Source: Patescibacteria group bacterium (GTDB lineage: Bacteria > Patescibacteriota > WWE3 > UBA101185 > UBA10185). From it: a stretch of 64,000 bases of DNA. Under the pieces are notes generated by a model. That model did not search any database and was not told the origin of the DNA. It saw only the letters and a list, made by a program, of their open reading frames with translations. Below, one piece after another: positions 4,136 to 51,815 of the stretch. Where the stretch lies: NCBI GenBank assembly GCA_049322215.1, contig JBMORU010000001.1:65357-129356 (forward strand), written 5' to 3'. Position 1 is the stretch's first letter. Every line of letters begins with the position of its first letter. Both the position numbers and the translations under genes were made by a program.

Positions 4136-4315
4136 TTGTCACTCTCCTTTTGCATTTGTATATAACGTAATTGCCACAATCTTAGCACAGTTAAAAAAAA
4201 TCGCCCTTGTGTTGGCGATAAAAAACTTATGTATACAATTCCGGTTAGAATATAGTTATCCACTAGGTCATCGAAGAGACTGTGGGCACTTTGCTTACAC
4301 AAAACACGCACAGTC

Positions 4316-4428
<113 letters not shown>

Positions 4429-4614
4429 TTATATACATAAATTTTTAAACTGCTAATTAGATTAGCTCATGCGCCTTTTCTCGTTCCAAGAAAGCAACCA
4501 AAAAAGGCGAAAAAGCCAACCTAATTAAAATTTGCATTACGTAAATAGCAAAAAGTCGAGTGCTTTTTACCAATGGTAAAAAGCCGTAGAAACTTTAACA
4601 CATAAACATTGTTT

Positions 4615-7640
<3,026 letters not shown>

Positions 7641-7912
7641 AGAGAATACGCAATTTATATTCAGAGAACACAAATCACGGTATATATTAAAGTCTCGTTG
7701 ACTTTTTACCTTAGTTTTAAAACATAAAGTAAAAAGCGTTTGAGTGACTTTTTGCTATTTGCCTAATGCAAATAAAGAATAAGTCATTTATTCTATATTA
7801 AGTTTACAAAGTACCTCTTTTTACAGAGTCAAAGTTAAAAACTTAATAAACTATATTAAGTTCTTAAATTTAACTACGTACCCAAATTTACAAGCTAAGC
7901 TATGCGATAACT

Positions 7913-7989
7913 TGGTGGACCCGACGGGAGTCGAACCCGTGACCTCCGCAGTGCAAATGCGGCGCTCTAGCCAACTGAGCTACAGGCCC
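7913..7989 (-). tRNA. tRNA-Ala (anticodon TGC), CCA encoded, G3:U70 identity pair present
   Basis: Reverse complement GGGCCTGTAGCTCAGTTGGCTAGAGCGCCGCATTTGCACTGCGGAGGTCACGGGTTCGACTCCCGTCGGGTCCACCA folds as a cloverleaf. Anticodon loop is TTTGCAC. Confidence 0.9.
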
Positions 7990-8201
7990 TCGCCTGTTTA
8001 GTTAAAATATTAATGTTAAGTTGGAATTAAGAGCTTCCGTCAAAAAGCTTTAAACCCGAAAAATCGAGTAGAAGGTAAATTCCCATTCCGTAGGAGTAAA
8101 TTATCACTTTGAGTAAACAATGTCAATAAAATTAATGGGTCTAAAGTTTATAGCAAAAAACTAAAAACTTTAAACCCAAATGTGTCAGAAATGGTTATTG
8201 A

Positions 8202-8588
8202 CTACGCAAGAACAAGCTTACCGTGCCGAGAACTTTTAACAGTATAAGTTTTGCCGCACAAGTGCACAAGCTCCCCTTTAGAAATGTGTGCCATTCCGTA
8301 AACAGTTTGCGCACCACCGCTACCACCAACTTGAACAGAATACTGGCTGTAACCGTTTGAACTTCGAGTATGCAACTGAACTGGCCCCTTATAGGACTGA
8401 AGCTGCAATGACCGACGATCAGTAAAACGCACCCAAAAAGTATCTCCATCGTAAGTTACTGAGTCACCATAGTTTAAACGTTTTGGTCCAAACAATGCTG
8501 TGGGGAGTTTTACGCCATCAACATAAACGTTATTGTACTTTTTTTGCTGACCATTACCTTGCCCTGTCAAAGTATCTTTCTTAGACAT
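8202..8588 (-). CDS. hypothetical protein (128 aa) embedded in the 16S-23S spacer
   Basis: ORF preceded by a strong SD (TAAGGAGAGACA-ATG, reverse complement of 8589-8603). Gly/Ser/Tyr-rich with no family recognised. Locally GC-richer than the surrounding spacer. Confidence 0.55.
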   Translation of the reverse strand: MSKKDTLTGQGNGQQKKYNNVYVDGVKLPTALFGPKRLNYGDSVTYDGDTFWVRFTDRRSLQLQSYKGPVQLHTRSSNGYSQYSVQVGGSGGAQTVYGMAHISKGELVHLCGKTYTVKSSRHGKLVLA

Positions 8589-8747
8589 TGTCTCTCCTTA
8601 GATAAATATTGGGATTTGTAAATTTCCTATGTTATAGGGTAAGGGCTATGGTAAAACATTGTATTGGCGTTGTCAATTAAGCAAAAACTATTACATACTC
8701 TTTACATATTCATGTTAATATATTAAAACGTATATGCCCTTTAGTAA

Positions 8748-8824
8748 GGGCTCGTAGCTCAGTTGGTTAGAGCGCTCCTCTGATAAGGGAGAGGTCGATG
8801 GTTCGAATCCATCCGAGCCCACCA
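8748..8824 (+). tRNA. tRNA-Ile (anticodon GAT), CCA encoded, on the strand opposite to the rRNA genes
   Basis: GGGCTCGTAGCTCAGTTGGTTAGAGCGCTCCTCTGATAAGGGAGAGGTCGATGGTTCGAATCCATCCGAGCCCACCA gives a clean cloverleaf with anticodon loop CTGATAA. Confidence 0.9.
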
Positions 8825-8861
8825 AGCTGTAAATCCACTAAACAAGTTAATATAAAACTTT

Positions 8862-8886
8862 AAAAAAAAGAGCACCGGAGTGCTAA
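8862..8886. terminator. Bidirectional hairpin terminator between tRNA-Ile (+) and the NUDIX gene (-)
   Basis: aaaaaaaag-AGCACC-gga-GTGCT-aacttttattt. The GC hairpin is flanked by an A-tract on one side and a T-rich tract on the other. On the minus strand it reads hairpin followed by TTTTTTTT. Confidence 0.5.
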
Positions 8887-8889
8887 CTT

Positions 8890-9303
8890 TTATTTGTTGT
8901 TAATAAATTCTAAAACAGGAGAAGCTAGATCGTAATAGACAAAATTAGAAAATAAGTCAGGTTCTACCCATCTAAACTGTTCAACTTCAGAAGTATCAAT
9001 TAACAATGTATATGCTTCAGACACTAGAGTACAAGCAAAGTAATGCAATACTACTTTTTGTGAGGGAATAATAATTTCATGAATTTTGCGAACTACCGAA
9101 ACTTCATGTCCAGTTTCTTCGTATGCTTCACGTACTGCTGCCTCTTCATGAGTTTCATCATCATAAACTTTACCCCCAGGAAATGTCCAGGAGAGTCTAT
9201 TTTCTAACCCATGTAATGAGGGATCATAGCGTTTTACTAACAAAACGCTGCCTGTAGGGTTTTTAACTACAGATAAAGCTACTTGTGTTTGATTATCTTC
9301 CAT
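8890..9303 (-). CDS. NUDIX hydrolase
   Basis: 137 aa with a Nudix box GGKVYDDETHEEAAVREAYEETGHEV (GX5EX7REUXEEXGU). Confidence 0.8.
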   Translation of the reverse strand: MEDNQTQVALSVVKNPTGSVLLVKRYDPSLHGLENRLSWTFPGGKVYDDETHEEAAVREAYEETGHEVSVVRKIHEIIIPSQKVVLHYFACTLVSEAYTLLIDTSEVEQFRWVEPDLFSNFVYYDLASPVLEFINNK

Positions 9304-9570
9304 AAATTATCTTAATTTCTATATCGTTTACACTTAGCGCTTCAAGGAATAATAAGCAAAAAGAATGTCTCATTTAAGGGTTTAGGCTCACCCTTGAACC
9401 TGCTCATCCAACCCCGTGAGGGGGGTGGTGTACAACTACTACCTATGAGCTGCTCGATAGTAGCGTATGTTTTTTCTTTCATCGGTCTTTTTAAGACACA
9501 CTGTCAAACACAAAGGATTGACCATCTTAAAAAGGTTCCGCGATCAAAAACATAATATTCTTTCTCTTTA

Positions 9571-11035
<1,465 letters not shown>

Positions 11036-11116
11036 AAACATTCTTTTTGCTTGCCATTCCTCGAAATAACAAGCATTCTTGAATACTAAGTAATATTAAA
11101 AAATCAAAGAGCAAAT

Positions 11117-11266: not shown

Positions 11267-13618
11267 ATGCAAAAAGCGATCGTAGTTTCTATGCTCATTA
11301 TTACATTTTTCTCTATAAATACAAGTAAAGCTTTTGGACAAGAAATAATACCTACTACAGAAAATGGCTTTTACATTACCTCTGTCGAAATTACACCTTG
11401 GGGAATTATGAGTGGAGAATTTGATCAACGCGCGTGGAAAAACCCTTTTAATGGCATAAAAATTTCAAAAGATAAAGGCGTCTCCTGGACAGCGTCAGGA
11501 CTAAAAAATAGAGGTATTACAGATTTACACTACCAAAACGGTATTATATATGCAGCTACATACTATTTTGTAGAACAAGAAGCCGGTCTTTTTGTATCTT
11601 ACGATGCAGGAATAAACTGGACACATTTAGGGAACAACTTTTCAACTACAAAAGTAACTACAAGCAACGACACTATTTACCTAGGAACATATAGCCATGG
11701 GCTATGGAAGCATAGCAACGCAACAGGGTGGAAACAACTCATTGGCGATGGTTACTTTGGCCCTAAAATAACCCTCATAAAAGCAAAAGACAGCTACATA
11801 GTTGCACAAACATCGGTAGGTGTTTATGAATCAAATGATTTTGGAGAAACCTGGACAGTACCAGAAGTTTTTAAACAAACTACTATAAACGACGTTATCT
11901 TTATAGACGAGTTAACTATAGCTGCTACTAAAACTGGAATTTATACATCATCAGATAAGGGTATTACGTGGAATAAACAAAACAGTTTGAATGAAAAAAA
12001 CATAACAACATTATTCGCAACACCCAAACACATGTACGCCAGTGTTGAACAAAAACCTAATGAATTTGAGCTTTTGGTATCTTTAAACTCAGGAACTACT
12101 TGGAATAAATTTGCAACATTACCCATAAACAAGCCAAATGCCATAAAAGACATGACTTATATGTTTTCATTTCCATCAAAAATATATTTTGTGAGCCAAA
12201 CAAACGGAATATTTTACTTTTTAGAAGAATCAAACAACATAAAGGAGCCTTTGCTTAGAATTCCATGGCACTATAAAAAAGAATCTGAACTTGTCTCAAC
12301 TATAACATCTTATTTTGATCACGAATATCCATTCTCCGGGTATAAATACTACACAGAACCACCAGCTGTTAATGCAACAACTGTAAATTATCTTGGACAA
12401 AGAGCCAGAGAACCAATTTTATACTATAGTAAACACGATGGTGTGGATTTTGCACTGCCTTACGGTACTGAAATTGTAGCGGCACATTCTGGGCAGGCAA
12501 CTTATGCGTACGAAGAAAATGGTTTGGGTCATCATATAAATGTAGTCAGCGAAAACGGATTTCAAACTACATATGCACATATGCAAGAAAGTGGTTTAGC
12601 CACTAAAACAACTACTTGGATTGAAGAAGGAAATAAAGTTGGATTAGTAGGACTAACAGGAAAAACTACAGGACCCCACTTACACTTTGCAGTAACATAC
12701 GACAAAAATGAAAATGAAAACTTTACTGATAATGAAACAAATGGAAAAACAGATCCTTTTGGATGGCAAACACCGTTTTATGCTGATCCATGGGCAACAT
12801 ACACCTGGTTGGATAGTTTAGGTACCCATAACGGCATGGAAAGCTATTATATGTGGAAAAACAACCTACCAAAAAGCACTTTTAATATTACTAACAATTT
12901 GCAAAATATCACGCACGAAAACATAAGTATGCAGCTTCCTGAAAACTTTACACAACACGAAATCACTATTTCTATTCAAAACCATTCGATACCTGCAGTA
13001 CCACCTGAAAAAAACAAACTTGTTTATATAACAGGAACATCCTTTTTACTTAATGCCTACAACAACTTAGGGCAAGAACCTCCCGAGTTTTTAAAGCCTG
13101 TTCGAATTGAAATTGACTTTAGTGAAGCTGATTTACAAAACATTTTGCTGAATACACTTAGTATTTACTACCTAAATGACTCAACAAACAGTTGGGAAAA
13201 AGTTAACTCAGTATTAGATTTAGTAAACAAAAAACTTACAGCAGAAACTTCCCACTTTTCAAACTATGCTGTTTTTGCTGAAAAAATAGATTATGACGCC
13301 CCAAATACAATCATTGCAGTAATAGGTGCAAAAACAGGAAACTGGTTTACACAGTATCCAACTATAGAACTTAGTTATAATGATGCAGACGTTAACTATG
13401 TGTTTTATAAATTAAACAACGAAGTTACTTGGCGTGAGTATAGTGAACCATTTGAACTACAAAAAGAAGGAATAAATAAAATAGAATATAAGGCGGTAGA
13501 TGGCAACAACAACTGGGAAAATGCACACGACATTGTTATACCTATAGATACGAAAAATAAATGGAAAGATACTTCCAAGGTCTCAGAAATAGTAGTTGGC
13601 ACTGAAACTCAAAATTAA
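11267..13618 (+). CDS. Secreted BNR/Asp-box repeat protein fused to an M23 (LytM-type) metallopeptidase domain
   Basis: 783 aa with a signal peptide (MQKAIVVSMLIITFFSINTSKAFG). At least five S-x-D-x-G-x-T-W BNR repeats (SKDKGVSWT, SYDAGINWT, SNDFGETWT, SSDKGITWN, SLNSGTTWN). M23 motifs HDGVDFALPYGTEIVAAHSG and GPHLHFAV. Confidence 0.75.
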   Translation: MQKAIVVSMLIITFFSINTSKAFGQEIIPTTENGFYITSVEITPWGIMSGEFDQRAWKNPFNGIKISKDKGVSWTASGLKNRGITDLHYQNGIIYAATYYFVEQEAGLFVSYDAGINWTHLGNNFSTTKVTTSNDTIYLGTYSHGLWKHSNATGWKQLIGDGYFGPKITLIKAKDSYIVAQTSVGVYESNDFGETWTVPEVFKQTTINDVIFIDELTIAATKTGIYTSSDKGITWNKQNSLNEKNITTLFATPKHMYASVEQKPNEFELLVSLNSGTTWNKFATLPINKPNAIKDMTYMFSFPSKIYFVSQTNGIFYFLEESNNIKEPLLRIPWHYKKESELVSTITSYFDHEYPFSGYKYYTEPPAVNATTVNYLGQRAREPILYYSKHDGVDFALPYGTEIVAAHSGQATYAYEENGLGHHINVVSENGFQTTYAHMQESGLATKTTTWIEEGNKVGLVGLTGKTTGPHLHFAVTYDKNENENFTDNETNGKTDPFGWQTPFYADPWATYTWLDSLGTHNGMESYYMWKNNLPKSTFNITNNLQNITHENISMQLPENFTQHEITISIQNHSIPAVPPEKNKLVYITGTSFLLNAYNNLGQEPPEFLKPVRIEIDFSEADLQNILLNTLSIYYLNDSTNSWEKVNSVLDLVNKKLTAETSHFSNYAVFAEKIDYDAPNTIIAVIGAKTGNWFTQYPTIELSYNDADVNYVFYKLNNEVTWREYSEPFELQKEGINKIEYKAVDGNNNWENAHDIVIPIDTKNKWKDTSKVSEIVVGTETQN

Positions 13619-14701: not shown

Positions 14702-15187
14702 TTAAGGTAAAGAAATATCACATTTAGCAGCAGCTACCGTCATAACTTCGATTTCTTCTTTTATTATGCCTAAGGCTTCATCAAAACTTAATTTTCTATA
14801 GTTATGCGGAAAATAGTGAAAAACCTGATTTCTACCCTTTTTCCATACTTGCCAAAGTTTATCGGTAACGTCAGCGCCCCCTTTATCGTGTAAACATAGC
14901 TTTTGATAAATAGAAGTGTGTTCTTTCATAAACATGGGGTTTAAAATGCGCCCTATTCTTATTGAATCACCATAATATTCATCTTCTTTTATTAAATCTA
15001 AATCAAGAAAAAGTTGCTTTAAAAAGCCTTCATAAGCTTTTGAAAAAGGAAATACCAAAAAGGAGTAATCAGAAACACTTTTAAAGTGTACAACGTCGGT
15101 GAGCAATTGTTCCCCATCGAGTATTAGTTCTCTTTGATCTTCAGCCAAGTACTGCCAAAGATGTGATTTTTTATCTACTACTTCCAC
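14702..15187 (-). CDS. hypothetical protein (161 aa) with a C-terminal R-x4-H-Y motif (HEPN-like?)
   Basis: ORF, predicted mostly helical. GRNQVFHYFPH near the C-terminus resembles the Rx4-6H HEPN signature. This is a weak assignment. Confidence 0.45.
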   Translation of the reverse strand: MEVVDKKSHLWQYLAEDQRELILDGEQLLTDVVHFKSVSDYSFLVFPFSKAYEGFLKQLFLDLDLIKEDEYYGDSIRIGRILNPMFMKEHTSIYQKLCLHDKGGADVTDKLWQVWKKGRNQVFHYFPHNYRKLSFDEALGIIKEEIEVMTVAAAKCDISLP

Positions 15188-15273
15188 GAAAGAATCTTAG
15201 CATAAAAAAAATGCCGTAGAAAATATATATAGTTTTTAGCTACATATACCTTTTACGGCATTTGATGTTGAAA

Positions 15274-15969
15274 CTAACCGTGAGCTTCCTGCCGGTTGGC
15301 TTCAAACAGTTGAATCAATTGCCCAGCTTGATGCATACTAAGTCTGCTAATGAACATACGCCACACAATCGGGTTTCCCATTGCGTTTAGAGCATTGAAC
15401 AGCAAATCAGGATCAATTTGTCGCATCATTTTGTCTAGTCTTTTGGCAGCCTGCAGTTGATTTTCAGTAACCACCCCGTAGGCATCCATTTCTTCTTGCA
15501 AACGGATCTCACCATAGGTCAAACCGGCCAACTTTGCAGCAAACCCGTGGTAACCATGCCCTACAATTGTGTAGTACACGTCAAAACGACCCAAGCGCAC
15601 GTCTGGTCTAATCTGCCCCTGTTGGTAGCCAAAATTATCCACCTGGGTCAACTCCTCTACAAGCCCAAACCATGCCGTATGACCATGATTAGCACGCAAC
15701 CCATCCAAGTGTTTTTTCCACCACTCAAACGCGCGTTCCTCAATTGACTTCGGATCGGTTTGCGTAGGGCCAGCATAAGACTCCAGCACCATCAAAACCT
15801 GGTCCAAAACATTACGTTCAGCCGCATTCATCGCAGCGTTGAACAAATTCGGTTTTTTGGGATCTGCGTTCAAAATTTGTAATGCGGCAGCCTGATCTTC
15901 TTCATTTGCCCGGTTAAACAGCTTCCCCAATTTCTTCTTCAACATTGCAGTTTTCATTACGGTTTTCAT
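15274..15969 (-). CDS. hypothetical protein (231 aa) in locally GC-richer DNA
   Basis: Long ORF with conspicuously higher GC than neighbours. No signal peptide and no family recognised. Confidence 0.5.
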   Translation of the reverse strand: MKTVMKTAMLKKKLGKLFNRANEEDQAAALQILNADPKKPNLFNAAMNAAERNVLDQVLMVLESYAGPTQTDPKSIEERAFEWWKKHLDGLRANHGHTAWFGLVEELTQVDNFGYQQGQIRPDVRLGRFDVYYTIVGHGYHGFAAKLAGLTYGEIRLQEEMDAYGVVTENQLQAAKRLDKMMRQIDPDLLFNALNAMGNPIVWRMFISRLSMHQAGQLIQLFEANRQEAHG

Positions 15970-16111
15970 TTTTTAATCTCCTTATGATCTGTATATGAAA
16001 ATGAAACGATATTGCTGTAAATTATACTATAGGTCTGCATAGTTGGCAATAGAAAACACTCTTACAACAAGCTTATAAAGGTTTTCTACAATTAGCTTCA
16101 AATTACTATAA

Positions 16112-18565
16112 CTACTTTTCTTCTGTAAATAAAAAGTGAGTACTTAACTCAATCACAGCAAATAATAAAAAGGCCATACCTAAAGCAACAAACCAATAAG
16201 TACCTATGGGAACAAGCCCGAAAAATTCACGTGTAGCGGCAGTAGAAAAAGGTACAAATTGCAAAAGTGCGCCACCAATTACGGCTAAAACTAACCACTT
16301 GTTGCCGAATAGGCTTTCTTTCCAAAACGGCTGGCTTAATGTTCTAACAGAAAACACGTAAATTAAAGAATTAATACCTAAAGAAACAAAAGTAACCGAT
16401 TGAGCTAAAAGTAAGTCTTGGGATGTTGTGTAAACGTACCAAAATATTAAAAATGCAAATACGCCTCCAACAACAGATACAAGGGCAATAAGCTTAGTCA
16501 TCCATTTAGCCACTAAAAGCTCTTTAGGGGAGCGTGGAGGCTTTTGCATTATGCCTTTTGACTTAGGATCAATAGTTAACGCTAAGCTAGGAAAGCCGTC
16601 GGAAATTAAGTTTACCCAAAGTATTTGAGAGGCTGTAACAGGAAGAACCGGCAAAAATAATAATGCAAGTAAAATAGTTAAAATTGCTTGAAAAGCATCA
16701 CTCATTAAATACAAAATTATTTTACGGATATTATCAAAAATACCTCGTCCTTCTTCAATTGCTGCAATAATTGTTGAAAAGCTGGAATCTAGTAAAACCA
16801 AATCCGCAGACTCTTTAGCTACATCACTTGCCTCACCAACCACTATACCAATATCTGCTTTAGATACAGCAGGGGCATCATTTACACCATCACCTGTCAT
16901 TGCAACCACCTCACCAGTACGTTTTAGTGATTCAATGATTTTTAATTTTTGATCGGGAGTAGTTCTTGCAAAAAGTTTAATTTTGTCGCCGTCAGATACT
17001 TCTGCATCTATTTGTGTATTAGACATGTTACGAAGTTCTGAACCTAAAACTATGTTGTCATCGCTTATGTGCAAACCAAGTTGCTGCATTACTGCCATAG
17101 CTGTTTTAGAGTAATCTCCTGTAATAACAAATATTCTAATTCCTGCATCCATAGCTTTTTGTAGTGCATTAGAAACATCTTCACGAACAGGATCAGAAAA
17201 AGCCAACATACCAATAAAAGTTAAATTTCCACTCGTTATATCGTTAATCTCAAGTCCGGTTTTACTATTGTTCTCGCGTTTTTGTGCAAATCCAATTACA
17301 CGTTTACCTTGAGCAGATAAGCTTTCTACCTTTTGTCGGTAAGAGTCCTTTTCTTCATGAGATAGTGTAGATAAATTTATCAGCTTTTCAGGAGCACCAT
17401 TTACAAAAATTAAGTTACTCTCATTGTCAAAATCGTTTAGAGAAGCAAAAAACATGTTGTCTGAATTAAACGGCAGGCTATCTAAACGCTTATATTTAGA
17501 AGTTATTTCCCCAGTATCAACAAGTTTACTTTTTCCCCATTCGGCAGCTGCTATAACAATTGGATCATCTAAATCATTAGCAACTAAAACTTGTAAAGCT
17601 AATATGTCTTCGTCACCTATAATATCTACAACAGACATAGAGCCTTTTGTTAAAGTGCCCGTTTTATCCACACAAATGCAGGTAACGCCACCTAAGGTTT
17701 CTGCAGATACTAAGTTTCTAACTAAACCTTTACGCTTTAAAATACGCTGCATTCCTATAGCCAAAACTACAGTTAAAGCAACTAATAAGCCCTCGGGAAT
17801 AGCAGAAACAGCTAAAGCAACGGATGTAGTAAAAATTTGTGCAGGTGAGTTTCCAAAAAGTATTCCGGTAATGAAGACTAATACGCTTAAACCAAGCACT
17901 ACATACGTTAACTGCTTACTAAACTTTTCCAGCTGACGTTTTAATGGAGTCGATTCTTTGAGCTCCTGTACGCTAATGGCAATTTTACCCATTTCAGTGT
18001 GTTCTCCAGTTACTGAAACCTTCATTAACCCGCGACCACCCGAAGCCACGGTTCCCATATAAACAATGTCTCCCATTTCTTTTGTAACAGGCACAGATTC
18101 ACCTGTTAAAATTGCTTCAGTCAAATATAAACGGTTTGCTTCAACAAGTTCACCATCTGCAGAAATTTTGTCTCCCTGGTTTATAACAACTAAATCACCA
18201 GGAACAATTTCACCCACAGGAATAGTGACTTGTTCACCATTTCTTATAACGTTAGCCTGAGGATGCAGCATGCGCTTAAGAGCCTCTAAGGCTTCTCCAG
18301 CACGTTTTTCTTGATAAAAACCTAAAACTGTATTTAAAAGCACTGCAATAAGAATAATATAGGTATCTTCATGATCACCTAACCACCATGTAATAACTGC
18401 GGCCACTATTAAAATGTAAACAAGGGGACTTTTAAGCTGTGATAAAAATATTACTAAACCACTAGGTGGCGGATTTTCGGGCAATAAATTAGGACCGTAT
18501 TCTTTTAAACGTTTTTGAGCTTCTTGTGTGCTTAAACCCTTTAAATCTGTTTCTTGCATAGACAT
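16112..18565 (-). CDS. P-type cation-transporting ATPase, Ca2+-ATPase-like (type II)
   Basis: 817 aa. DKTGTLT phosphorylation motif, PEGL motif, TGDGVNDAPA hinge and 8-10 predicted TM helices. Confidence 0.85.
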   Translation of the reverse strand: MSMQETDLKGLSTQEAQKRLKEYGPNLLPENPPPSGLVIFLSQLKSPLVYILIVAAVITWWLGDHEDTYIILIAVLLNTVLGFYQEKRAGEALEALKRMLHPQANVIRNGEQVTIPVGEIVPGDLVVINQGDKISADGELVEANRLYLTEAILTGESVPVTKEMGDIVYMGTVASGGRGLMKVSVTGEHTEMGKIAISVQELKESTPLKRQLEKFSKQLTYVVLGLSVLVFITGILFGNSPAQIFTTSVALAVSAIPEGLLVALTVVLAIGMQRILKRKGLVRNLVSAETLGGVTCICVDKTGTLTKGSMSVVDIIGDEDILALQVLVANDLDDPIVIAAAEWGKSKLVDTGEITSKYKRLDSLPFNSDNMFFASLNDFDNESNLIFVNGAPEKLINLSTLSHEEKDSYRQKVESLSAQGKRVIGFAQKRENNSKTGLEINDITSGNLTFIGMLAFSDPVREDVSNALQKAMDAGIRIFVITGDYSKTAMAVMQQLGLHISDDNIVLGSELRNMSNTQIDAEVSDGDKIKLFARTTPDQKLKIIESLKRTGEVVAMTGDGVNDAPAVSKADIGIVVGEASDVAKESADLVLLDSSFSTIIAAIEEGRGIFDNIRKIILYLMSDAFQAILTILLALLFLPVLPVTASQILWVNLISDGFPSLALTIDPKSKGIMQKPPRSPKELLVAKWMTKLIALVSVVGGVFAFLIFWYVYTTSQDLLLAQSVTFVSLGINSLIYVFSVRTLSQPFWKESLFGNKWLVLAVIGGALLQFVPFSTAATREFFGLVPIGTYWFVALGMAFLLFAVIELSTHFLFTEEK

Positions 18566-19535: not shown

Positions 19536-20555
19536 TTGAGAAACAAAAAAACTCTCAAAACATGGATTACCTTTACACTGCAAAAAAAATCACGCATTAT
19601 TAATATTATGGAACCTGTGCTTTACATATTTTTGATACTTGTTGCGTGTGGTGTTTTAATAAAAGCGGTAAATGCCTTTATTGAATCTTCAACTATTATT
19701 GCTCATCACCTCAATATATCTACATATACAATTAGTTTTTTAATAATATCTATAGCTACATCATTACCCGAACTAGTCGTTGGAATTAATTCTGGATTAA
19801 GCGGCAACCCAATTTTAGCTTATGGTGCTGTAATAGGATCAAATATTGCACTACTAACTTTAGTAATTGCTATACCTGTTTTACTAGGAGAAACGCTTTC
19901 AACTAACACCATTCTTTATAATAAAGATGCTTATTTAGGAGCTTTATTTACTATTATGCCACTTGCAATGTCTATAGATGGTAAATTAACACGAATTGAC
20001 GGCCTACTGTTACTAAGCGGATATGTAATTTACTTTATAGCTGTTTTAAAAAGAGGAAGTTTTTTTGAAAACCTTATAGAAAAATTTGAACATAGAAATA
20101 TGTGGAAACAAGGAACTTTATTTGTTGGATCCTTACTAGTAGTACTTGCTGCAAGCGAAGTTATTGTAGAATCAGCGCTGAATTTAAGTACATTAGTTGC
20201 ATTAGAATTAGGCTTTATAGGACTTTCTATAACGGCTTTAGGAACATCCTTACCTGAAATTGCTTACACTGTTTCAGCTTCGAAGCGTATTCATAAAGAC
20301 AGCGCACTGGGAGATATAATTGGAAGCGTAATTGCTAATTCTACAGCGGTACTAGGTACCGTGGCTGTAATAAAACCTATAATAATAACTAATGCCACCG
20401 TAGGTTTATCTTCGTTAACATTTTTGCTATTCACTATTTTGTTATTTTTGAGATTTGTAAAAACTAAAGAAACACTTGATAAAAAGGAAGCGTTACTTTT
20501 ATTTGTAATTTATATCGCCTTTATAATTTTTGAATATCAAATGCAATTAAAGTAG
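19536..20555 (+). CDS. Na+/Ca2+ exchanger family (CaCA, YrbG-like) membrane transporter
   Basis: 339 aa with two alpha-repeat signatures, GTSLPELVV and GTSLPEIAYTVSA. The true start may be the internal MEPVLYIF. Confidence 0.75.
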   Translation: MRNKKTLKTWITFTLQKKSRIINIMEPVLYIFLILVACGVLIKAVNAFIESSTIIAHHLNISTYTISFLIISIATSLPELVVGINSGLSGNPILAYGAVIGSNIALLTLVIAIPVLLGETLSTNTILYNKDAYLGALFTIMPLAMSIDGKLTRIDGLLLLSGYVIYFIAVLKRGSFFENLIEKFEHRNMWKQGTLFVGSLLVVLAASEVIVESALNLSTLVALELGFIGLSITALGTSLPEIAYTVSASKRIHKDSALGDIIGSVIANSTAVLGTVAVIKPIIITNATVGLSSLTFLLFTILLFLRFVKTKETLDKKEALLLFVIYIAFIIFEYQMQLK

Positions 20556-20556
20556 T

Positions 20557-21831
20557 TTACTCTAAAGCCCCAGTATCAGTATAAATACCGAAATCATAAA
20601 GCGAAGGAAGTCCTGGGAAACGTCTATAAACTGTAACTGACTTAGTTGGCTGATCCCCCGCAACGTCATTTGTTATACTTCCCGTCGAAGTTATTTTATA
20701 CCCTTGAACAGGCAACCCATTGGAATCTTGCGTAGGAAACAAAACCATTTTTGCAGATTCATTAATAGTGCGTAATCTTAAATGGGTTATGTTGTTATCC
20801 ATAGTAATTATATGCCCATCGTAATTTTCGTACCCAACATGGTTGCAAGTACTTGCACTTTCAAAGTTATTTTCATAATCAATTGGAAATCTATTTATGC
20901 GATCGTTACTTGCAACACCATTTTTTTCCATTTCTACAGGCAACTCTGGTAGAGTTATATCTAATTTTCCAACAATATTTACATCATTAATCAATAAGTC
21001 TTCTTGAGTTCCAGAAAAACACTCGGCAGCAGGATACTGGGCTTGTTTTGTAGTATTAAAAGATCCTGATGAAATGTAAAAGGTGACATCCTCGCTGGCA
21101 ATGCTTGATACAGAAGTTGGGAGTTCCCAATATATAGATTCGCCGGGTAAAACCGCTTGCTCTTGCCCATCAATACCTAAAGACTCAACGCTTGCTATTA
21201 CATCAAATTCACAGCTAGCTTGGTTTGAATCAAAGTTCACAAAAGAGGCATATACAATACCATTTCCGTCTGCAGTGCATGCAGAAGAAGCCCAATAGTC
21301 CACAAAACATCCAGAGCGTATTTCTGTACCAACGTCATTTGCTGAATAAGAAGTATAGTACAAATCACTACCGTTGTTTGTATTAACTGACTGCCAACAC
21401 ACCTCTATAGAATTAGAAGCATAAGAGCCCATGCGTACATCATACGTTTGGCCATTTTCAGCAGTAAAATCAAAACCATTTGGGTACTGAGTACTACCAA
21501 AATAATCAACAGTAACTGAAGCATTAGTAAAAATAGGATCTGTAGAACTTTGTCCGGAACTGTAATCAATTACTGTAACATCTCCGGAATCTGCTAACGT
21601 TGCAAGCTCATTAAAAGGGCGAACTAAAAAGTTTTCTATTCCACCTTCGGCTGCGGCCAAAACACGCGCAGAAGTGTCAGTGTTTGTTACTCTAGAAACA
21701 GTGGACAATGTGCGTAACGAAATACCAACACCTAAAGCTAAAGCTATAACCATAACCGCTACAGCAAAGGCAAGAGCCTGTCCTTTTTCATTATTCACTA
21801 ATTTATTATTTTTCATTTTCCGTACTCCCAA
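20557..21831 (-). CDS. Secreted Cys-containing protein with a prepilin-type (class III signal-like) N-terminus; putative minor pilin or adhesin
   Basis: 424 aa. N-terminus is a K/N-rich leader, then G, then a hydrophobic helix (NEKGQALAFAVAVMVIALALGVG). Ser/Thr/Asn-rich extracellular region with paired Cys. Confidence 0.5.
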   Translation of the reverse strand: MGVRKMKNNKLVNNEKGQALAFAVAVMVIALALGVGISLRTLSTVSRVTNTDTSARVLAAAEGGIENFLVRPFNELATLADSGDVTVIDYSSGQSSTDPIFTNASVTVDYFGSTQYPNGFDFTAENGQTYDVRMGSYASNSIEVCWQSVNTNNGSDLYYTSYSANDVGTEIRSGCFVDYWASSACTADGNGIVYASFVNFDSNQASCEFDVIASVESLGIDGQEQAVLPGESIYWELPTSVSSIASEDVTFYISSGSFNTTKQAQYPAAECFSGTQEDLLINDVNIVGKLDITLPELPVEMEKNGVASNDRINRFPIDYENNFESASTCNHVGYENYDGHIITMDNNITHLRLRTINESAKMVLFPTQDSNGLPVQGYKITSTGSITNDVAGDQPTKSVTVYRRFPGLPSLYDFGIYTDTGALE

Positions 21832-23771
21832 GTTAAACCTTCTTGAAATAAACCAGAATAATTTCTGTTTAAATTATCTTCACTTAACTCCTGTTTTACT
21901 AACTGTAGGTAGTAATAAGGATTATACTTCACAACTTCCACAGGTAATTCGTTTCGTGCACGTCCATCACGTGCAAAAATCACAGTACCCTCTTTAGATA
22001 TTAAAGGACTTTCTACAATAATTGGTAAATCAAAAATTATGTCAGCGTCATTAGCCCCTAATTGACTACTAAAAACTATATTTCCATTAACAATAAAAGA
22101 GGCCTCTATATTAGGTCTTGTGGTGGGTAAGGGATAAATAGTGTTTAAAGTAGAATCAAATATAACCGATCTGCTTACTACAAATATAATGCGCTGATAT
22201 GGAGAAACAGAATGTATGTTTTTATTTATATTCAAGTCACCATCTGTAACATAAATTACTACAACACCATTTTTCGATAACGAATAAGTTGCGGTTTCTG
22301 AAGCACCGTTTAGTGCACCTTCTATACAAGAGGAACTAGCTTTATAAGCGCGCATAGGGTTAAGCTTTTCATCTTCCTTGTTTGTGCTAAACATAGTATT
22401 ACAACTAATACCAAGTTCGTTATCTTCAATGCTTATTGCACCAACTGGGGGCTTAAAATTATATGAAGTAGGCCATGTAGCAACTTGAGATCTAATATTT
22501 TTCTGGTATCTATTATTGTCTTCGGAGTAACGGTCTTCGCCGTCGGGATTAACTACACTCAAATCTCTATTGCCAAATACTGTGCCTATCTGCTGTATTA
22601 AATAAGTTTTAAACGTATCGGTACCTAATACAATGTCTGAAGGAATTTCTGCATCTACACTGTGGAAACAATCAGAACAACCCCCATATATATCTCCAAA
22701 TAAAGAGGTAAACCACCCTGTAGATACAAGTTCGTAACCTAAGTTAATATTTTCAGACAAATCGTCTATATCTTTAATAGCACAGGCACTGGTTTGTACA
22801 CCGGAATCACTATTATCCACACATTTTAATCTATAAAAAGCATTTGGAGTGCTAGTTGGCGTTGAAACACTTCCACAAATAACACTATTATCTGCAATTG
22901 GAACATTGTTTATTTCATAACTGTAACCGCTAAAATCATTAGGATCCCAAGTACCATAAATATTTGGATCTCCTGAAACGAAAACTTCTACACCATCTTC
23001 TACATCATTAGGTTGAATTTCTAGAGAATTCTTGTCAGTGTCAGATATATTACAAGAGCTATCAGTGGCATCCCAAATTAGTCCTCTAATACGTGACAAG
23101 GAAGCAGAATCAGCGCAGTATGGAGTGCCTATAACTTTACCTTTAACTAGTCTATAGCTGTCGCTATACCAATTAATACCGGGTTCACCGTCGGGGTATG
23201 AAAACGGATTTACAGAAGGGCCTATGTGAACATCTGCCTGAATTCTACACAAACTGTCCGCGTCATCGGGTAAAAACAGTTCAAACGATGTTGATTCCCC
23301 AGGAGCCAACAATACCAAAGGTGTTTCCTCAACAAAACGCTGTAAGTTTAATCCTTCCATAGGGTCACCTCCTGCAGGTATTTCATAATAGGTTAAGCCA
23401 ACCCAATACCAACAGTTGTAAATAGTGTTGTTTTTGGCAGTACCAAATATAGAACCGCCGGTTTTAAAATCTACTGATAATGTTCCTGTAACTTCTTCTA
23501 CTCTCTTGTTTTCTTTCATATCACATATTTTAAATTGAGAGCTTTGAGTAGATGATAAATCGGGTAAGTAAGTGCGATTCACATCGTTAGTGTAATCATG
23601 GTTATCTATGATGGTATCTAACTTTATGCTTTCTGCTTGTGTGTCTGTAATAAATTCGTAGTCGTTGGTAGTTTGAGCCAAAACAGAAGAAGTGAAAAAA
23701 GAAACATAAACCAAGCCAAGAATTAAGGAATTAGAAATCGTAAAAATTATAGGCCTAGGAACAGAATTCAT
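21813..23771 (-). CDS. Large secreted hypothetical protein (652 aa), Cys-rich
   Basis: Signal peptide MNSVPRPIIFTISNSLILGLVYVSFFTSSVLAQ. No family recognised. Overlaps the downstream gene by 19 nt, implying an operon. Confidence 0.55.
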   Translation of the reverse strand: MNSVPRPIIFTISNSLILGLVYVSFFTSSVLAQTTNDYEFITDTQAESIKLDTIIDNHDYTNDVNRTYLPDLSSTQSSQFKICDMKENKRVEEVTGTLSVDFKTGGSIFGTAKNNTIYNCWYWVGLTYYEIPAGGDPMEGLNLQRFVEETPLVLLAPGESTSFELFLPDDADSLCRIQADVHIGPSVNPFSYPDGEPGINWYSDSYRLVKGKVIGTPYCADSASLSRIRGLIWDATDSSCNISDTDKNSLEIQPNDVEDGVEVFVSGDPNIYGTWDPNDFSGYSYEINNVPIADNSVICGSVSTPTSTPNAFYRLKCVDNSDSGVQTSACAIKDIDDLSENINLGYELVSTGWFTSLFGDIYGGCSDCFHSVDAEIPSDIVLGTDTFKTYLIQQIGTVFGNRDLSVVNPDGEDRYSEDNNRYQKNIRSQVATWPTSYNFKPPVGAISIEDNELGISCNTMFSTNKEDEKLNPMRAYKASSSCIEGALNGASETATYSLSKNGVVVIYVTDGDLNINKNIHSVSPYQRIIFVVSRSVIFDSTLNTIYPLPTTRPNIEASFIVNGNIVFSSQLGANDADIIFDLPIIVESPLISKEGTVIFARDGRARNELPVEVVKYNPYYYLQLVKQELSEDNLNRNYSGLFQEGLTWEYGK

Positions 23772-23811
23772 ACACTAATAATAAACACACGAAGAGAGTT
23801 TTACAATACAG

Positions 23812-24354
23812 CTAATTGCTATTACTAAAAGTAGCAGACTTATAAAAACTTGAAGCAACTTTTTCAATAGGCACTATAACAGCCTCTGCAGAATAAGATC
23901 CCTCAGCTAGTGTATAAACCTCAGACTCGGGAAAACTACCCAAATCTAATACCGCAAGGTGATTATTTGATAAAGGCGTTTTAACGTAAAACTTCATATA
24001 TTTATAACCGTTCCAGGTTGGTGATGTTTCTACTAAAATTTGATGTAAATCAGATTTATCACCACTTACACTTCCCCAACGTTTACCTGACGTTAAACTT
24101 TTAGTGCAGATTTCTTTTTCTTCACATAAATATTCAACTAATTCCCATGGGGAATTTTTGGACATTATAGAAACACTAAACCCGGGTTTTGCGTAAGGAT
24201 CTTTAATGGTGGAGGTTCCTTTTACATCGGTTGAGGACGCTAAATTAACATCGTTATTTGCTATCCAAAATACAACGGGCAGTACTAACACTAATGTAAC
24301 TATTAAAACTACAGGCAGAGCGAATCCTTTTTGCATTGTTACTATTAAACACAT
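23812..24354 (-). CDS. Type IV pilin-like / pseudopilin-like protein (180 aa)
   Basis: N-terminus MQKGFALPVVLIVTLVLVLPVVFW resembles a prepilin leader (KG|F + hydrophobic helix) but lacks Glu at +5. Confidence 0.5.
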   Translation of the reverse strand: MCLIVTMQKGFALPVVLIVTLVLVLPVVFWIANNDVNLASSTDVKGTSTIKDPYAKPGFSVSIMSKNSPWELVEYLCEEKEICTKSLTSGKRWGSVSGDKSDLHQILVETSPTWNGYKYMKFYVKTPLSNNHLAVLDLGSFPESEVYTLAEGSYSAEAVIVPIEKVASSFYKSATFSNSN

Positions 24355-24597: not shown

Positions 24598-25743
24598 ATG
24601 AAACAACCAAAAGTATGCTTAGTTCATGATTATTTAGTTCAATATGGTGGTGCAGAAAAAACTCTTGAGGCTTTTTTGGAGATTTTTCCACAAGCAGACA
24701 TATTTACAAGTACATACAAAGCCGTGGCTATGTCTTCTATAATAAACAAAAGCAAAGTTGTAACAATAGGAAATACAACTAACAAGTTAAAAACAAAAAT
24801 CCCCATACTCTCAAAATATCTAACTTTTTTAAATCCAATAGGATTTGAGAATTTTGACTTAAGTAACTACGATATTGTAGTTTCAGACAGTAGTTCATAT
24901 GCCAAGGGTGTTATAACAAAACCAGAACAACTGCATATAAGCTACATACACACACCCCCCAGATTTTTATATAAGTATTCTGTTGAAAGTACAAAAAGAG
25001 ACAACTGGTACTATAAACCAATTGTGAAGTATATTGATCACTACTTAAGAATTTGGGACTTTCTTGCCGCACAAAGAGCTGACTATATAGTATGCAATTC
25101 TTATGAGGTTAAAAAAAGAATAGCTAAATTTTATAAACGCGATGCAACTGTAATATATCCTCCTGTAGAAGTAGAAAAGGCAGCCAAAAAACATGAATTT
25201 GATAACCTAGAAGAACCATTTTATTTAACTGTAGGCCGATTATCGGCATATAAAAATGTGGATATGCTTGTAGAAGCATTTAATTTACTTGGGATAAGAC
25301 TAAAGGTTGTGGGTACAGGTTCGGAGGAAAAGAGATTAAAAAAAATGGCTAAACCAAATGTTGCAATTTTAGGAAAAGTATCTGAAAAAGAAAAACACAG
25401 ATTATTGGCACAATGCAAAGGGTTTTTATTTCCTGTAGTAGAAGAAGACTTTGGAATTGGTGTAATAGAAGCTATGGCGCACGGAAAACCAATACTAGCA
25501 CACAAATCTGGAGGTCCCCTAGAAACAATAAGAGATGGTATAGATGGTATGTTTTTTGATTCTATAAAAATAGAGCATTTTATGAATCAGGTGAAAAAGT
25601 TTGACGAAAACATAAGGCAAAATAAGTATGATTCAGAAAAAATAAAAGCGCATGCAATGCATTTCAACAAAAACAGGTTTAAGCAAGAATTTGAAGAGTT
25701 TGTAAAAGAAAAATGGGAAGGAAAAAATAGCCCTGAGAAATAA
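24598..25743 (+). CDS. Glycosyltransferase family 4 (GT-B, retaining)
   Basis: 381 aa. C-terminal EDFGIGVIEAMAHGKPILAHKSGGPLETI matches the GT4 E-x7-E region. Confidence 0.8.
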   Translation: MKQPKVCLVHDYLVQYGGAEKTLEAFLEIFPQADIFTSTYKAVAMSSIINKSKVVTIGNTTNKLKTKIPILSKYLTFLNPIGFENFDLSNYDIVVSDSSSYAKGVITKPEQLHISYIHTPPRFLYKYSVESTKRDNWYYKPIVKYIDHYLRIWDFLAAQRADYIVCNSYEVKKRIAKFYKRDATVIYPPVEVEKAAKKHEFDNLEEPFYLTVGRLSAYKNVDMLVEAFNLLGIRLKVVGTGSEEKRLKKMAKPNVAILGKVSEKEKHRLLAQCKGFLFPVVEEDFGIGVIEAMAHGKPILAHKSGGPLETIRDGIDGMFFDSIKIEHFMNQVKKFDENIRQNKYDSEKIKAHAMHFNKNRFKQEFEEFVKEKWEGKNSPEK

Positions 25744-35187: not shown

Positions 35188-36273
35188 ATGTATGGAGCAA
35201 TAATCTCTTTAGCAATAGCAATAAGTGTTTACGTCGCAGAAAAGTATTTTCTGCGAAAAAAAATGTCCCCTGAAATAATGTGGGAAGGATTGTTTTGGGG
35301 CATATTAACAGGTTTAGTTGGTGCCCGATTATTTCACGTAATAAGTTTATGGTCTTTTTACGAAGTAAACCCTACCTTAATTATTCAGTTTTGGCAGGGT
35401 GGCCTAAATATATTTGGCGGAATTTTAGGATTTTTAGTAGCTATTTCACTTTATTTAAAAAGTAAAAAGCAAAAGGTTTTACCCTGGTTAGATGTAGCAG
35501 CACAAGTAACACCTTTAGGTCAGGCTTTGGGTAGATGGGCAAACTATATTAATAAAGAAATTTATGGCCCCGAAACAAACCTGCCTTGGGGAATAAACAT
35601 TAACGGCTATAAACATCACCCACTTTTTCTATACGAAATGATACTAGATTTATGGCTATTTTCCTTGCTTATTTTAATAAAAACCAAAGTTAAAAAAGTA
35701 AAGAAAGGCACATTTTTGTATGTATATTTGGCAGGATACTCCACAATTAGAATTCTTCTTGAAGATTTCAGACTGCAAAAATGGGAATGGAGAAGCCTAA
35801 ATATTACAAATACAATTGCTCTTGTATTAATTGTATATGCTGGAACAATGTTGTTTAAAATATATAGAAAAAGACTCAATGTAAAGCTTATATTTAAAGC
35901 TCTAGCAACCACAGGAATTATAATTTCTTTATATCTAACTTATACAAAAATAAGTGGCGTTGAACCCTTATGCGGAGTGGGAACTTGCGAAATAGTTCAA
36001 AATAGTAGATACGCAACAATGCTTGGAATTCCAACAGCACTATACGGAGTGTTTTACTACATTGTTTTTTATATTTTGGCAGAAAAAAGCTTAAACAAAC
36101 AATTGTCCCTACTAATTCTTGTGGGACTTATCTTTTCAGCCTACTTAGCTTATTTAGAACTGTTTATTATTAATGCTTTCTGTAAATGGTGTGTAGGCTC
36201 TTTATTAGTAATACTATTAGCTTCGGGAATTCAGTACATAAGAATTAAGTATGATAATATTCATAACAGATGA
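35188..36273 (+). CDS. lgt: Prolipoprotein diacylglyceryl transferase (Lgt) fused to a C-terminal vitamin K epoxide reductase (VKOR) domain
   Basis: 361 aa. Lgt signature GQALGRWANYINKEIYGPETNLPWG. C-terminal VKOR motifs CGVGTC...NSRYATMLGIPTALYG and an active-site CKWC within a TM helix. Confidence 0.75.
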   Translation: MYGAIISLAIAISVYVAEKYFLRKKMSPEIMWEGLFWGILTGLVGARLFHVISLWSFYEVNPTLIIQFWQGGLNIFGGILGFLVAISLYLKSKKQKVLPWLDVAAQVTPLGQALGRWANYINKEIYGPETNLPWGININGYKHHPLFLYEMILDLWLFSLLILIKTKVKKVKKGTFLYVYLAGYSTIRILLEDFRLQKWEWRSLNITNTIALVLIVYAGTMLFKIYRKRLNVKLIFKALATTGIIISLYLTYTKISGVEPLCGVGTCEIVQNSRYATMLGIPTALYGVFYYIVFYILAEKSLNKQLSLLILVGLIFSAYLAYLELFIINAFCKWCVGSLLVILLASGIQYIRIKYDNIHNR

Positions 36274-48169: not shown

Positions 48170-48246
48170 TGGTGCCAACGGGTGGAATCGAACCACCGAC
48201 CTGACGCGTATGAAACGTCCGCTCTAACCGACTGAGCTACGTTGGC
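48170..48246 (-). tRNA. tRNA-Met (anticodon CAT), elongator-type acceptor; could alternatively be a lysidine-modified Ile2
   Basis: Reverse complement GCCAACGTAGCTCAGTCGGTTAGAGCGGACGTTTCATACGCGTCAGGTCGGTGGTTCGATTCCACCCGTTGGCACCA. Anticodon loop TTCATAC. Pairing 1G:72C. Confidence 0.8.
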
Positions 48247-49569: not shown

Positions 49570-49653
49570 AAATACTATATTAACCTAATATAATTGGATT
49601 TAAAAAACTTCTTTGGTTGCGGGGCCCGGATTTGCACCGGGACCTTCAGATTA

Positions 49654-49727
49654 TGAGCCTGACGAGGTACTATTCCTCCACCCCGCGTCGTTAAGTAAAG
49701 AATGCATATTACAATGCGTGGGTAGTG
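49654..49727 (-). tRNA. Initiator tRNA-fMet (anticodon CAT), C1:A72 mismatch, CCA encoded
   Basis: Reverse complement CGCGGGGTGGAGGAATAGTACCTCGTCAGGCTCATAATCTGAAGGTCCCGGTGCAAATCCGGGCCCCGCAACCA. It closely parallels the E. coli tRNA-fMet ends (CGCGGGGTGGAG...CCCCGCAACCA). Confidence 0.85.
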
Positions 49728-51739: not shown

Positions 51740-51815
51740 TGGTGGGTGATCCTGGGCTCGAACCAGGGACCGCTCGTGTATAAGACGAGTGCTCTACCAA
51801 CTGAGCTAATCACCC
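51740..51815 (-). tRNA. tRNA with anticodon TAT (UAU), formally tRNA-Ile reading AUA
   Basis: Reverse complement GGGTGATTAGCTCAGTTGGTAGAGCACTCGTCTTATACACGAGCGGTCCCTGGTTCGAGCCCAGGATCACCCACCA. Perfect acceptor, D and T arms, 5-bp anticodon stem CTCGT/ACGAG and loop CTTATAC. Confidence 0.75.

Follow-up and report, generated by a model that had tools for sequence, protein, structure and literature searches.

Three consecutive genes on the minus strand, at positions 20557-24354 of the 64-kb stretch of Patescibacteria DNA analysed here (hereafter the window), raise a simple question: do they encode together a surface pilus or adhesion apparatus, as a first, sequence-only reading proposed, or do they have separate histories and roles? 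We call the genes A, B and C, and we write L0xx for loci from other genomes and P0xxx for homologous proteins. Our answer is that B and C are likely to be an orphan two-gene cassette for the tip of a Patescibacteria type IV pilus, the machinery of which is encoded elsewhere, and that A, judged by the synteny described below, is a resident gene of the chromosomal backbone, separate from the B-C module. For the window alone this is a modest result, in that three hypothetical proteins are reclassified as two evolutionary units, not one operon-encoded apparatus.

The three open reading frames (ORFs) of 180, 652 and 424 amino acids (aa) described before are all present. Those of A (23812-24354) and C (20557-21831) are maximal ORFs, and likelier starts shorten their products to 174 and 419 aa (Table 1). 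The start of C is most likely the ATG at 21816 rather than the TTG at 21831, since a GGAG lies 8 nt upstream, the ATG overlaps the TGA stop of B (as ATGA) and NCBI has chosen the identical start; B and C then overlap by 4 nt, instead of the 19 nt first reported. The start of A is most likely the ATG at 24336 (MQKGF), because it is shared with three of the first four homologues; the ATG upstream of it falls within a promoter-like TTGACG-18-TTTAAT element (read by eye). An exact look-up identifies C as NCBI MFZ5424235.1 (419 aa, "hypothetical protein ACOZAO_00370"), on a contig of 1,112,869 bp from a Patescibacteria metagenome-assembled genome. All three genes have homologues in public data, namely four for A (E values from 6e-44 to 7e-30), one found by word search for B (P0040, E 3e-60) and 37 for C (from 2e-47 to 3e-14), and on this comparison A, B and C are therefore genuine genes. 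As was said of them at the outset, they belong to no recognisable family: Pfam and NCBIfam searches gave no usable match for any of the three, and when the families of C, B and A were searched as profiles against the PDB, nothing meaningful came up. A single N-terminal hydrophobic segment is present in each product, in agreement with the signal or anchor sequences first noted, and the layout of leader, Gly and hydrophobic stretch lacking Glu5 that had been seen in two proteins is that of A and C, where the residue at +5 is Val and Phe, respectively.

B and C in the pilus clusters of relatives

The evidence that carries our reading comes from other genomes. Reference pilus proteins, together with A, B and C, were mapped by tblastn onto 14 further loci from species-representative genomes, all of them Patescibacteria labelled WWE3 or Saccharibacteria. 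In about 13 loci of related Patescibacteria, homologues of B and C stand next to each other within a type IV pilus cluster, in the order pilB-pilT-pilC-pilA-pilD-(B-C)-minor pilins-pilM-N-O, and the tblastn matches to B, over residues ~225-650, lie directly upstream of the C homologues. In L007, L008, L010, L011, L012, L015, L016 and L018 the succession is pilD, a small anchored protein, B, C, five to seven pilins, a second PilX-like protein and pilM-N-O; the B-C pairs of L001/L002 and L003 are likewise found within the pilus cluster, directly behind pilD and ahead of five to seven canonical pilins and pilMNO, and the shorter loci L005, L006, L009 and L017 show B-C and then pilins (a partial context). 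The contig of P0006, a homologue of C, is from the Joint Genome Institute (JGI) and carries T2SSE, T2SSF, an N_methyl pilin, an ABC transporter and an A24 prepilin peptidase, and onward from these, unannotated genes that include two B-C pairs, a run of N_methyl pilins, PilM, PilN and PilO. Upstream of P0040 (842 aa), the homologue of B, lies pilB-pilT-pilC-pilA-(transposase)-pilD, separated from it by a single small gene; the gene after P0040, which overlaps it by 4 nt, encodes a C homologue whose N-terminal part contains NNGQVLVFVVATMAIALAVG and, further on, AAAEGG. The pilus connection suspected from the start is in this way borne out for B and C, by their adjacency in these clusters and by the pilin-like model of C described below, and the comparison of related genomes that had been recommended finds the pairing conserved and the N-terminal part of B variable.

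The junction of the two genes is conserved as well: in 16 of 17 B-C pairs from other genomes the ATG of C overlaps the stop of B or follows it by at most 27 nt, and the ATGA overlap in the window suggests translational coupling. The pilins encoded in the same clusters have canonical [KNS]GFTLIELL N-termini that match N_methyl, so that the ordinary pilins of this lineage are conventional and the invariant G-Q...AAEGG signature of C marks a distinct class.

Locus L001 tells us how the pair may evolve. Its two B-C copies share a tract of 1.4 kb (9423-10830 and 14916-16323) that is 99.2% identical and covers the last ~580 nt of B and all of C, without a nucleotide difference between the two C copies; the parts of B encoded upstream of it differ, and one B protein is longer by about 310 N-terminal residues. 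These repeats indicate segmental duplication or gene conversion within the pilus cluster, a process that keeps the C-terminus of B and C together and lets the N-terminus of B vary. Behind the first B-C copy of this locus stands a second copy of 157 nt from the 3' end of pilD (5248-5404 and 10857-11013).

Two other components of these clusters deserve mention. Each pilus cluster encodes, just before pilM, a second Gly-Gln protein of ~270 aa (Table 1), with an N-terminus similar to that of C and no B-like partner upstream, so that there are two pilin-like paralogue families with this signature per cluster; a Pfam search of this second PilX-like paralogue gave no PilX_N match. Besides, a small N-terminally anchored protein of 190-240 aa precedes most B genes. 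In L010, proteins of ~200 aa that start with KGFIGFRI(V/I)ILFVF (2238-2846 and 6628-7233) stand one before each B-C pair, and their Gly-Phe N-terminus lacks Glu5, like that of A. Neither BLASTP nor hhalign (probability 1.6%) detected a relation of A to the small proteins upstream of B elsewhere. A Tad/Flp system was also considered and rejected, as there are no TadE/Flp-like features and the clusters of the relatives are of the PilB/PilT/PilC/PilM type.

The products of C and B

The N-terminus of C reads MKNNKLVNNEKG/QALAFAVAVMVIALALGVG (also written MKNNKLVNNEKG/QALAFAVAVMVIALALGVGI; around the junction, NEKG/QALAFAV, the slash marking the putative cut), that is, a leader, a Gly and a hydrophobic stretch. 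G12 and Q13 are invariant in the alignment of 37 sequences, and C is probably cleaved after Gly12 by a prepilin peptidase. The helix that follows is hydrophobic to about residue 31 and continues into a conserved TDTSxRxxAAAEGG motif. The absence of Glu5 is a hallmark of cap-type minor pilins, for example GspK and PilX, and Glu5 is dispensable for the role that GspK, PilK and PilX play among the minor pilins of type II secretion systems and type IV pili; its absence from C is therefore no argument against a role in a pilus.

The structural model of C, computed from the 37-sequence alignment, has a mean predicted local distance difference test (pLDDT) score of 70. In it, residues 11-64 form one unbroken helix, as long as a pilin alpha1, accompanied by a beta-rich domain or beta-sandwich with pLDDT above 90, in other words the N-terminal helix of ~50 residues packed on a beta-sheet head by which pilins are recognised. 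A Foldseek search of this model against the PDB returned nothing significant. PilX_N is the commonest Pfam match among the relatives of C, at a weak level (9 of 37, best E 0.017, all below threshold); one relative is labelled "Tfp pilus assembly protein PilX" by JGI, and the G-x-A-L...A-A-E-G-G motif of C resembles PilX_N, by eye only. With 419 aa against ~160-190 aa for the pilins of the clusters, no Glu5, a beta-sandwich domain and an insertion, C has the size and domain make-up of a cap minor pilin.

B is a different kind of protein. It was tried as a prepilin and rejected, for its N-terminus is of the plain Sec (general secretory pathway) type with a signal peptidase I site (SSVLA/QTT), and the prepilin-like character once extended to it has to be given up. 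Of the 16 homologues inspected, most are likewise hydrophobic at the N-terminus, up to an Ala-type site. Residues 34-225 of B are gap-rich in the alignment, with a column conservation of 0.08-0.31. An exhaustive profile search (E <=1e-3) places 171 clusters (50% identity) in the B family, complete members of which range from ~460 to more than 1300 aa, and the stronger matches almost all cover the C-terminal ~200-430 residues. Among 56 family members scanned with Pfam, N-terminal CBM60 domains were found in six, Big_7 in five and spondin-type TSP1 in four, and others have fn3 and Ig domains N-terminal to the conserved domain; none of these modules was detected by Pfam in the B of the window. 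The conserved C-terminal domain itself corresponds to no known family in Pfam and to no sequence in the PDB, and the beta-propeller of PilY1 (Neisseria_PilC, PF05567) was matched by none of the 56 at E <=0.01, nor by B itself. Most of the 56 aligned homologues end in an alternating, strand-like SGLFvxDvxW, a few residues and the stop. By analogy with known tip proteins (PMC12918778), we infer that this terminal peptide, SGLFQEGLTWEYGK in the window, is a candidate docking strand for C.

The insertion in C (~130 residues, four Cys) is missing from most members of its family, which have 270-330 aa, and a subgroup of ~400 aa (P0010, P0014, P0019 and P0022) has a Cys-rich insertion at another position. 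Taken together, these insertions imply that the cap pilin, too, is modular.

The three proteins had been described as rich in Cys, Asn and Thr. This holds, to a moderate degree, for B and C, which exceed the other window proteins most strongly in Ser (10.4-10.5% against 6.2%), then in Asn (7.7-7.9% against 5.4%), Thr (6.9-8.4% against 5.9%), Asp and Cys (1.4-1.8% against 0.8%), and are depleted in Lys (2-3.5% against 7.2%). It fails for A, which is enriched in Ser only (13.2%) and is near the background in Asn (5.2%), Thr (6.3%), Cys (1.1%) and Lys (8.0%). The Cys counts are even in all three (A 2, B 12, C 6), and this fits two other products of the window, a fusion of LGT (prolipoprotein diacylglyceryl transferase) with VKOR at 35188-36273 (+) and an N-terminally anchored thioredoxin protein of DsbA-like type at 41351-42406 (+), which look like an extracytoplasmic disulfide-forming system.

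Gene A and the surroundings of the pair

Five more homologues of A were recovered from metagenome contigs, and all are set in the same backbone as in the window: DNA ligase, Fic, RecF-like, Fpg and GT4 genes (divergent), then A, then a Na/Ca exchanger gene (convergent) and a P-type ATPase gene, the flanking proteins being 34-61% identical to those of the window. A evolves fast (39-45% identity) and yet is fixed in its place between GT4 and the exchanger, in the window as in L019-L023. Three of the loci, L019, L020 and L021, reach far enough to show that the exchanger comes directly after A, with no B-C and no pilus genes; A is also found without B-C in L004, L022 and L023. On this synteny A is a resident backbone gene, separate from the B-C module, and its supposed membership of a common apparatus does not hold. 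The adjacency of A and the exchanger in L019-L021 means that the 3.2 kb occupied by B-C in the window is an indel between these two genes. Insertion of a duplicated or relocated B-C copy is the simpler reading, compared with unique retention, as B-C normally resides in the pilus cluster; the direction of the event is one that we infer. A search for signs of mobile elements around B-C found flanking repeats only as chance-level short matches, and the GC content of B-C (0.36-0.38) matches that of the neighbours, thus giving no compositional sign of a mobile element either. Orphan pairs occur elsewhere, too: L013 has a small anchored protein, a B of 906 aa, a C of 386 aa and then ordinary-looking genes with no pilin or pilM match, and on the contig of P0024 a protein of 1619 aa followed by C lies between the gyrB and gyrA regions.

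The N-terminus of A, MQKG/FALPVVLIVTLVLVLPVV (also written MQKG/FALPVVLIVTLVLVLPVVFWI, beginning MQKG/FALPVV), has no N_methyl match. Its family has a conserved MQKG[FY]xxP start, in which M1, Q2, K3, G4 and P8 are invariant, a beta-rich-looking body with two Cys and a conserved C-terminal SATFS motif. The QKG[FY] of A may or may not be a prepilin-peptidase site. In its favour, the motif is conserved, and [QE]KG occurs in three of about 20 N-terminally hydrophobic window proteins, namely A, C and the ORF at 62099-62905; against it, the hydrophobic segment contains two prolines and leads into a Pro/Gly-rich linker, not an amphipathic helix, and A has no linkage to pilus genes. The third of these ORFs (62099-62905, minus strand, 268 aa) starts with MKKQKG/LAVIPVLITVVVILIVG (MKKQKG/LAVIP), contains Pro in this region, lacks Glu5 and has no Pfam match. 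The shared N-terminus raises the possibility that a wider set of proteins uses one processing or anchoring route.

Table 1. Features of the A-B-C region, with the second Gly-Gln protein of the pilus clusters (window positions, unless a locus is named)
Feature	Position	Strand	Remark
Gene C, 419 aa, Glu5-less, cap-type minor pilin-like; Patescibacteria-specific family resembling PilX_N	20557-21816	-	
C leader MKNNKLVNNEKG, ending in invariant Gly; putative prepilin-peptidase site G/Q	21781-21816	-	alignment of 37 sequences
C residues 11-64, predicted continuous N-terminal alpha-helix, pilin alpha1-like	21625-21786	-	
C residues ~161-290, lineage-specific insertion	20947-21336	-	alignment columns ~355-490, occupied by the window protein alone; pLDDT <50
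ATGA overlap of C start codon and B stop codon	21813-21816	-	GGAG at 21825-21828
Gene B, 652 aa, Sec-exported modular protein, conserved partner directly upstream of C	21813-23771	-	
B residues 1-33, Sec/signal peptidase I-type signal peptide	23673-23771	-	sequence pattern only
B residues 34-225, variable N-terminal region, proposed binding part	23097-23672	-	
B residues 226-652, family-defining C-terminal domain	21816-23096	-	
B residues 639-652 (SGLFQEGLTWEYGK), conserved strand-like terminal peptide	21816-21857	-	near-invariant Trp648
Gene A, 174 aa, small exported or membrane-anchored protein, two Cys	23812-24336	-	
Na/Ca exchanger gene, right-hand boundary of the B-C indel	19536-20555	+	stop 1 nt from the stop of C
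GT4 glycosyltransferase gene, divergent from A, conserved left-hand neighbour	24598-25743	+	
Second Gly-Gln protein of the pilus clusters	L007 15056-15907; L018 14655-15461; L010 14800-15651; L015 9706-10521; L002 15129-15890		

A few other features of the window may be recorded here. Its GC content is about 35%, and it includes a gene for an ATP-dependent DNA ligase; both traits, like the tRNA-Ile(UAU) and the long, gene-bearing spacer of the rRNA operon described next, suit a genome of the Patescibacteria. A tRNA-Ile with the anticodon UAU is encoded at 51740-51815 (-); such a tRNA is uncommon in bacteria, where AUA is usually read by a modified CAU tRNA, and two tRNA-Met(CAT) genes are present at 48170-48246 and 49614-49687. 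The rRNA operon (4314-11036, minus strand) has its 16S (9572-11036) and 23S (4615-7630) genes ~1.9 kb apart, with ORFs at 8202-8588 and 8890-9303, a tRNA-Ala and an opposite-strand tRNA-Ile(GAU) in the spacer, and the length of the 23S match (3016 nt, for a model of 2925 positions) suggests an insertion. Two large signal-peptide proteins, one of 1111 aa with a weak GH5 cellulase match (57559-60894, minus strand) and one of 783 aa with BNR repeats and an M23 peptidase domain (11267-13618, plus strand), are possible envelope- or host-wall-active enzymes.

A proposed tip cassette, its rivals and its known counterparts

How could such a cassette work? In the scenario that we favour, C would be a Glu5-less minor pilin of the GspK/PilK/PilX class, inserted in the membrane by its N-terminal helix; once cleaved, probably, after Gly12, it would top the priming complex, a position in which no Glu5 salt bridge is needed. 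B would be exported by Sec, cleaved by signal peptidase I and probably disulfide-bonded by the DsbA-like/VKOR system encoded in the window, and it would then dock on C by its conserved C-terminal domain, possibly with its terminal strand inserted into the sheet of C. Core minor pilins, a major pilin and PilB/C/D/M/N/O would be supplied from other parts of the 1.1 Mb genome; together with them B-C would prime a pilus and end up at its tip, where the variable N-terminal part of B would bind a surface. The target is most likely to be the envelope of a host cell, the bacterium being presumably epibiotic. Finally, the site of B-C between A and the exchanger gene would go back to an insertion of the pair or else to its unique retention.

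We also put forward, more tentatively and as a conjecture that may well prove wrong, a general version of this scenario: B would represent a Patescibacteria-specific family of tip proteins, unrelated in sequence to PilY1, that locks onto the Gly-Gln cap pilin C by its conserved C-terminal domain and terminal strand; its N-terminal modules would be swapped, changing the target of the pilus, and extra or orphan cassettes, such as that of the window, would provide alternative tips and thereby set or widen the host range of obligate epibionts.

Several observations weigh against a tip cassette. The 64-kb window contains no pilus assembly ATPase, platform protein, prepilin peptidase, PilMNO or Glu5 pilin, so it cannot be the pilus or adhesion apparatus itself, as had been proposed for this region; GspI/J-like pilins are part of the same cluster in the relatives, and the C of the window is an orphan with none nearby. 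Gln at +1, as in C, is unusual for bacterial prepilins. C does not match N_methyl (PF07963) and stays below the Pfam gathering threshold for PilX_N (PF14341), which the family consensus does not match either. C has a conserved C-terminal tail of its own (P-L-P-x-x-F-D-F-G-I-Y) that could fill the strand position, as in GspK, in place of the terminal peptide of B. Lastly, the modelling that had been suggested as a check gave a pilin-like C and failed for B, for which a two-sequence alignment yielded an unusable model (pLDDT 35.6).

The pilus context is shared by the alternative that fares best, in which the B-C pilus would serve for DNA uptake, with C as a ComGG/GspK-like cap and B as a DNA receptor at the tip instead of a host adhesin. 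Patescibacteria are naturally transformable, and ComZ of Thermus, with which B could be compared, is a large tip-associated DNA-binding protein; both facts count for this idea. One may add that one pilus system of TM7x was essential and could not be probed for a part in competence (PMC11623550). We nevertheless think that this role is unlikely, since the relatives of B carry CBM60, Ig, fn3 and TSP1 domains, not nucleic-acid-binding ones, the acidic character and low Lys content of B (3.5% against 7.2%) would suit DNA binding badly, and duplicated pairs with divergent B N-termini fit varied ligands better.

The sequence-only reading in its full form, a self-contained three-gene operon for a surface pilus or adhesin in which A and C are pilins and B is the adhesin, appears to us quite improbable. 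The genes are indeed co-directional and close together (40 nt between A and B, -4 nt between B and C) and are bounded by one divergent and one convergent gene, A and C both have the N-terminal Gly with a hydrophobic stretch, and the KGFIGFR proteins of L010, like the small anchored proteins before most B genes, might be seen as counterparts of A. The first of these points is what stands of the word "operon", whereas counts in promoter and terminator scans of the region were at or below shuffled expectation, so that a single transcript is neither supported nor opposed by them, and the evolutionary history of A differs from that of B-C. Moreover, A keeps its place in L019-L021 in the absence of B-C and pilus genes, it is unlike the small proteins upstream of B, its prolines and Pro/Gly-rich linker are not those of a pilin helix, and the window offers neither assembly genes nor a major pilin. 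Least likely of all, and in our opinion very improbable, is that the proteins are ordinary Sec-dependent surface or secreted ones with plain signal anchors and that the location of their relatives in pilus clusters is incidental. It is true that no curated pilin family is matched, that structural matches are weak and that SignalP-type tools reportedly call no PilD sites even in the comparable PilX proteins of TM7x (PMC11623550). Against this, the pair keeps its place between pilD and the array of pilins in ~13 loci of divergent lineages, all 37 aligned sequences have Gly-Gln where the hydrophobic helix sets in, a helix of 54 residues far exceeds a signal anchor, and [QE]KG is limited to so few of the N-terminally hydrophobic proteins of the window.

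If, then, B and C are a tip cassette, what does this change? For Patescibacteria, type IV pili were already known, as were minor pilins of modular build and the dispersal of pilin loci. The analysis adds a conserved two-gene unit that belongs to no Pfam or NCBIfam family, made of a Gly-Gln cap pilin and a Sec-exported modular partner (~170 clusters). It is a component of pilus clusters both in WWE3-like and in other Patescibacteria, and copies of it may be duplicated or lie away from the usual site; in the open-access literature we found nothing on a separate Sec-exported partner family or on its fixed pairing with such a cap pilin. This matters because host recognition and attachment by the ultrasmall Patescibacteria are largely unexplained, type IV pili being the main candidates, with pilins too divergent for annotation by sequence. 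If the partner B is a tip adhesin, its variable N-terminal modules would be the obvious place for determinants of host specificity.

Among known systems, the closest in organisation is the pairing of PilX/PilK with PilY1/PilC in Pseudomonas, Neisseria and Myxococcus, where the gene of a Glu5-less cap pilin adjoins that of a large Sec-exported non-pilin (PMC12918778; PMC7541494). The extreme C-terminal strand of PilY1/PilC is proposed to complete the sheet of PilK-type pilins, and the non-homologous MshQ is predicted to dock likewise on MshP (PMC12918778); by analogy with both, the conserved terminal peptide of B makes strand docking plausible. Both PilY1/PilC and B vary in an N-terminal region (the binding part, in B a proposed one), are conserved C-terminally and end in a short conserved peptide, and PilX-PilY1, like B-C, is present in some genomes as several alternative sets. 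B, a non-pilin of Sec type encoded beside a PilX/PilK-like gene, resembles these partners in functional terms, which is no proof of homology. It differs in that it has no beta-propeller signature and in that the order of the genes is partner then pilin, and C differs from PilX/PilK by its Gln at +1 and its beta-sandwich accessory domain. To our knowledge Patescibacteria have no outer membrane, which is a further difference from the bearers of PilX-PilY1.

GspK, of the GspI-J-K tip complex (PDB 3ci0), is only weakly similar to C, with no sequence match; the terminal strand of GspK is part of GspK itself, and no second protein serves as its partner, whereas C is encoded with B. The context also departs from type II secretion, as the pilus cluster includes the retraction ATPase PilT. 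In the MSHA pilus of Vibrio cholerae, a large tip protein unrelated to PilY1, MshQ, is encoded beside MshP, a PilK homologue, and is predicted to dock by a C-terminal strand (PMC12918778). There the large gene is downstream of the pilin gene, whereas B is upstream, lineage and envelope differ, and the likeness is one of description.

Within the Patescibacteria, PilX1 and PilX2 of Nanosynbacter lyticus TM7x are large minor pilins with non-canonical signals, large accessory domains and satellite loci, and have been proposed as tip proteins; pilin loci are dispersed in this organism, and PilX2 is needed for efficient host binding (PMC11623550). These findings support a role in adhesion and make satellite pilin loci normal in this group. 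The pilins of TM7x carry the accessory domain as a fusion, whereas B is a separate Sec-exported partner, and C can be likened to PilX1 by description only. If our proposal is right, B-C would be a further independent case of a large tip protein that docks on a cap pilin.

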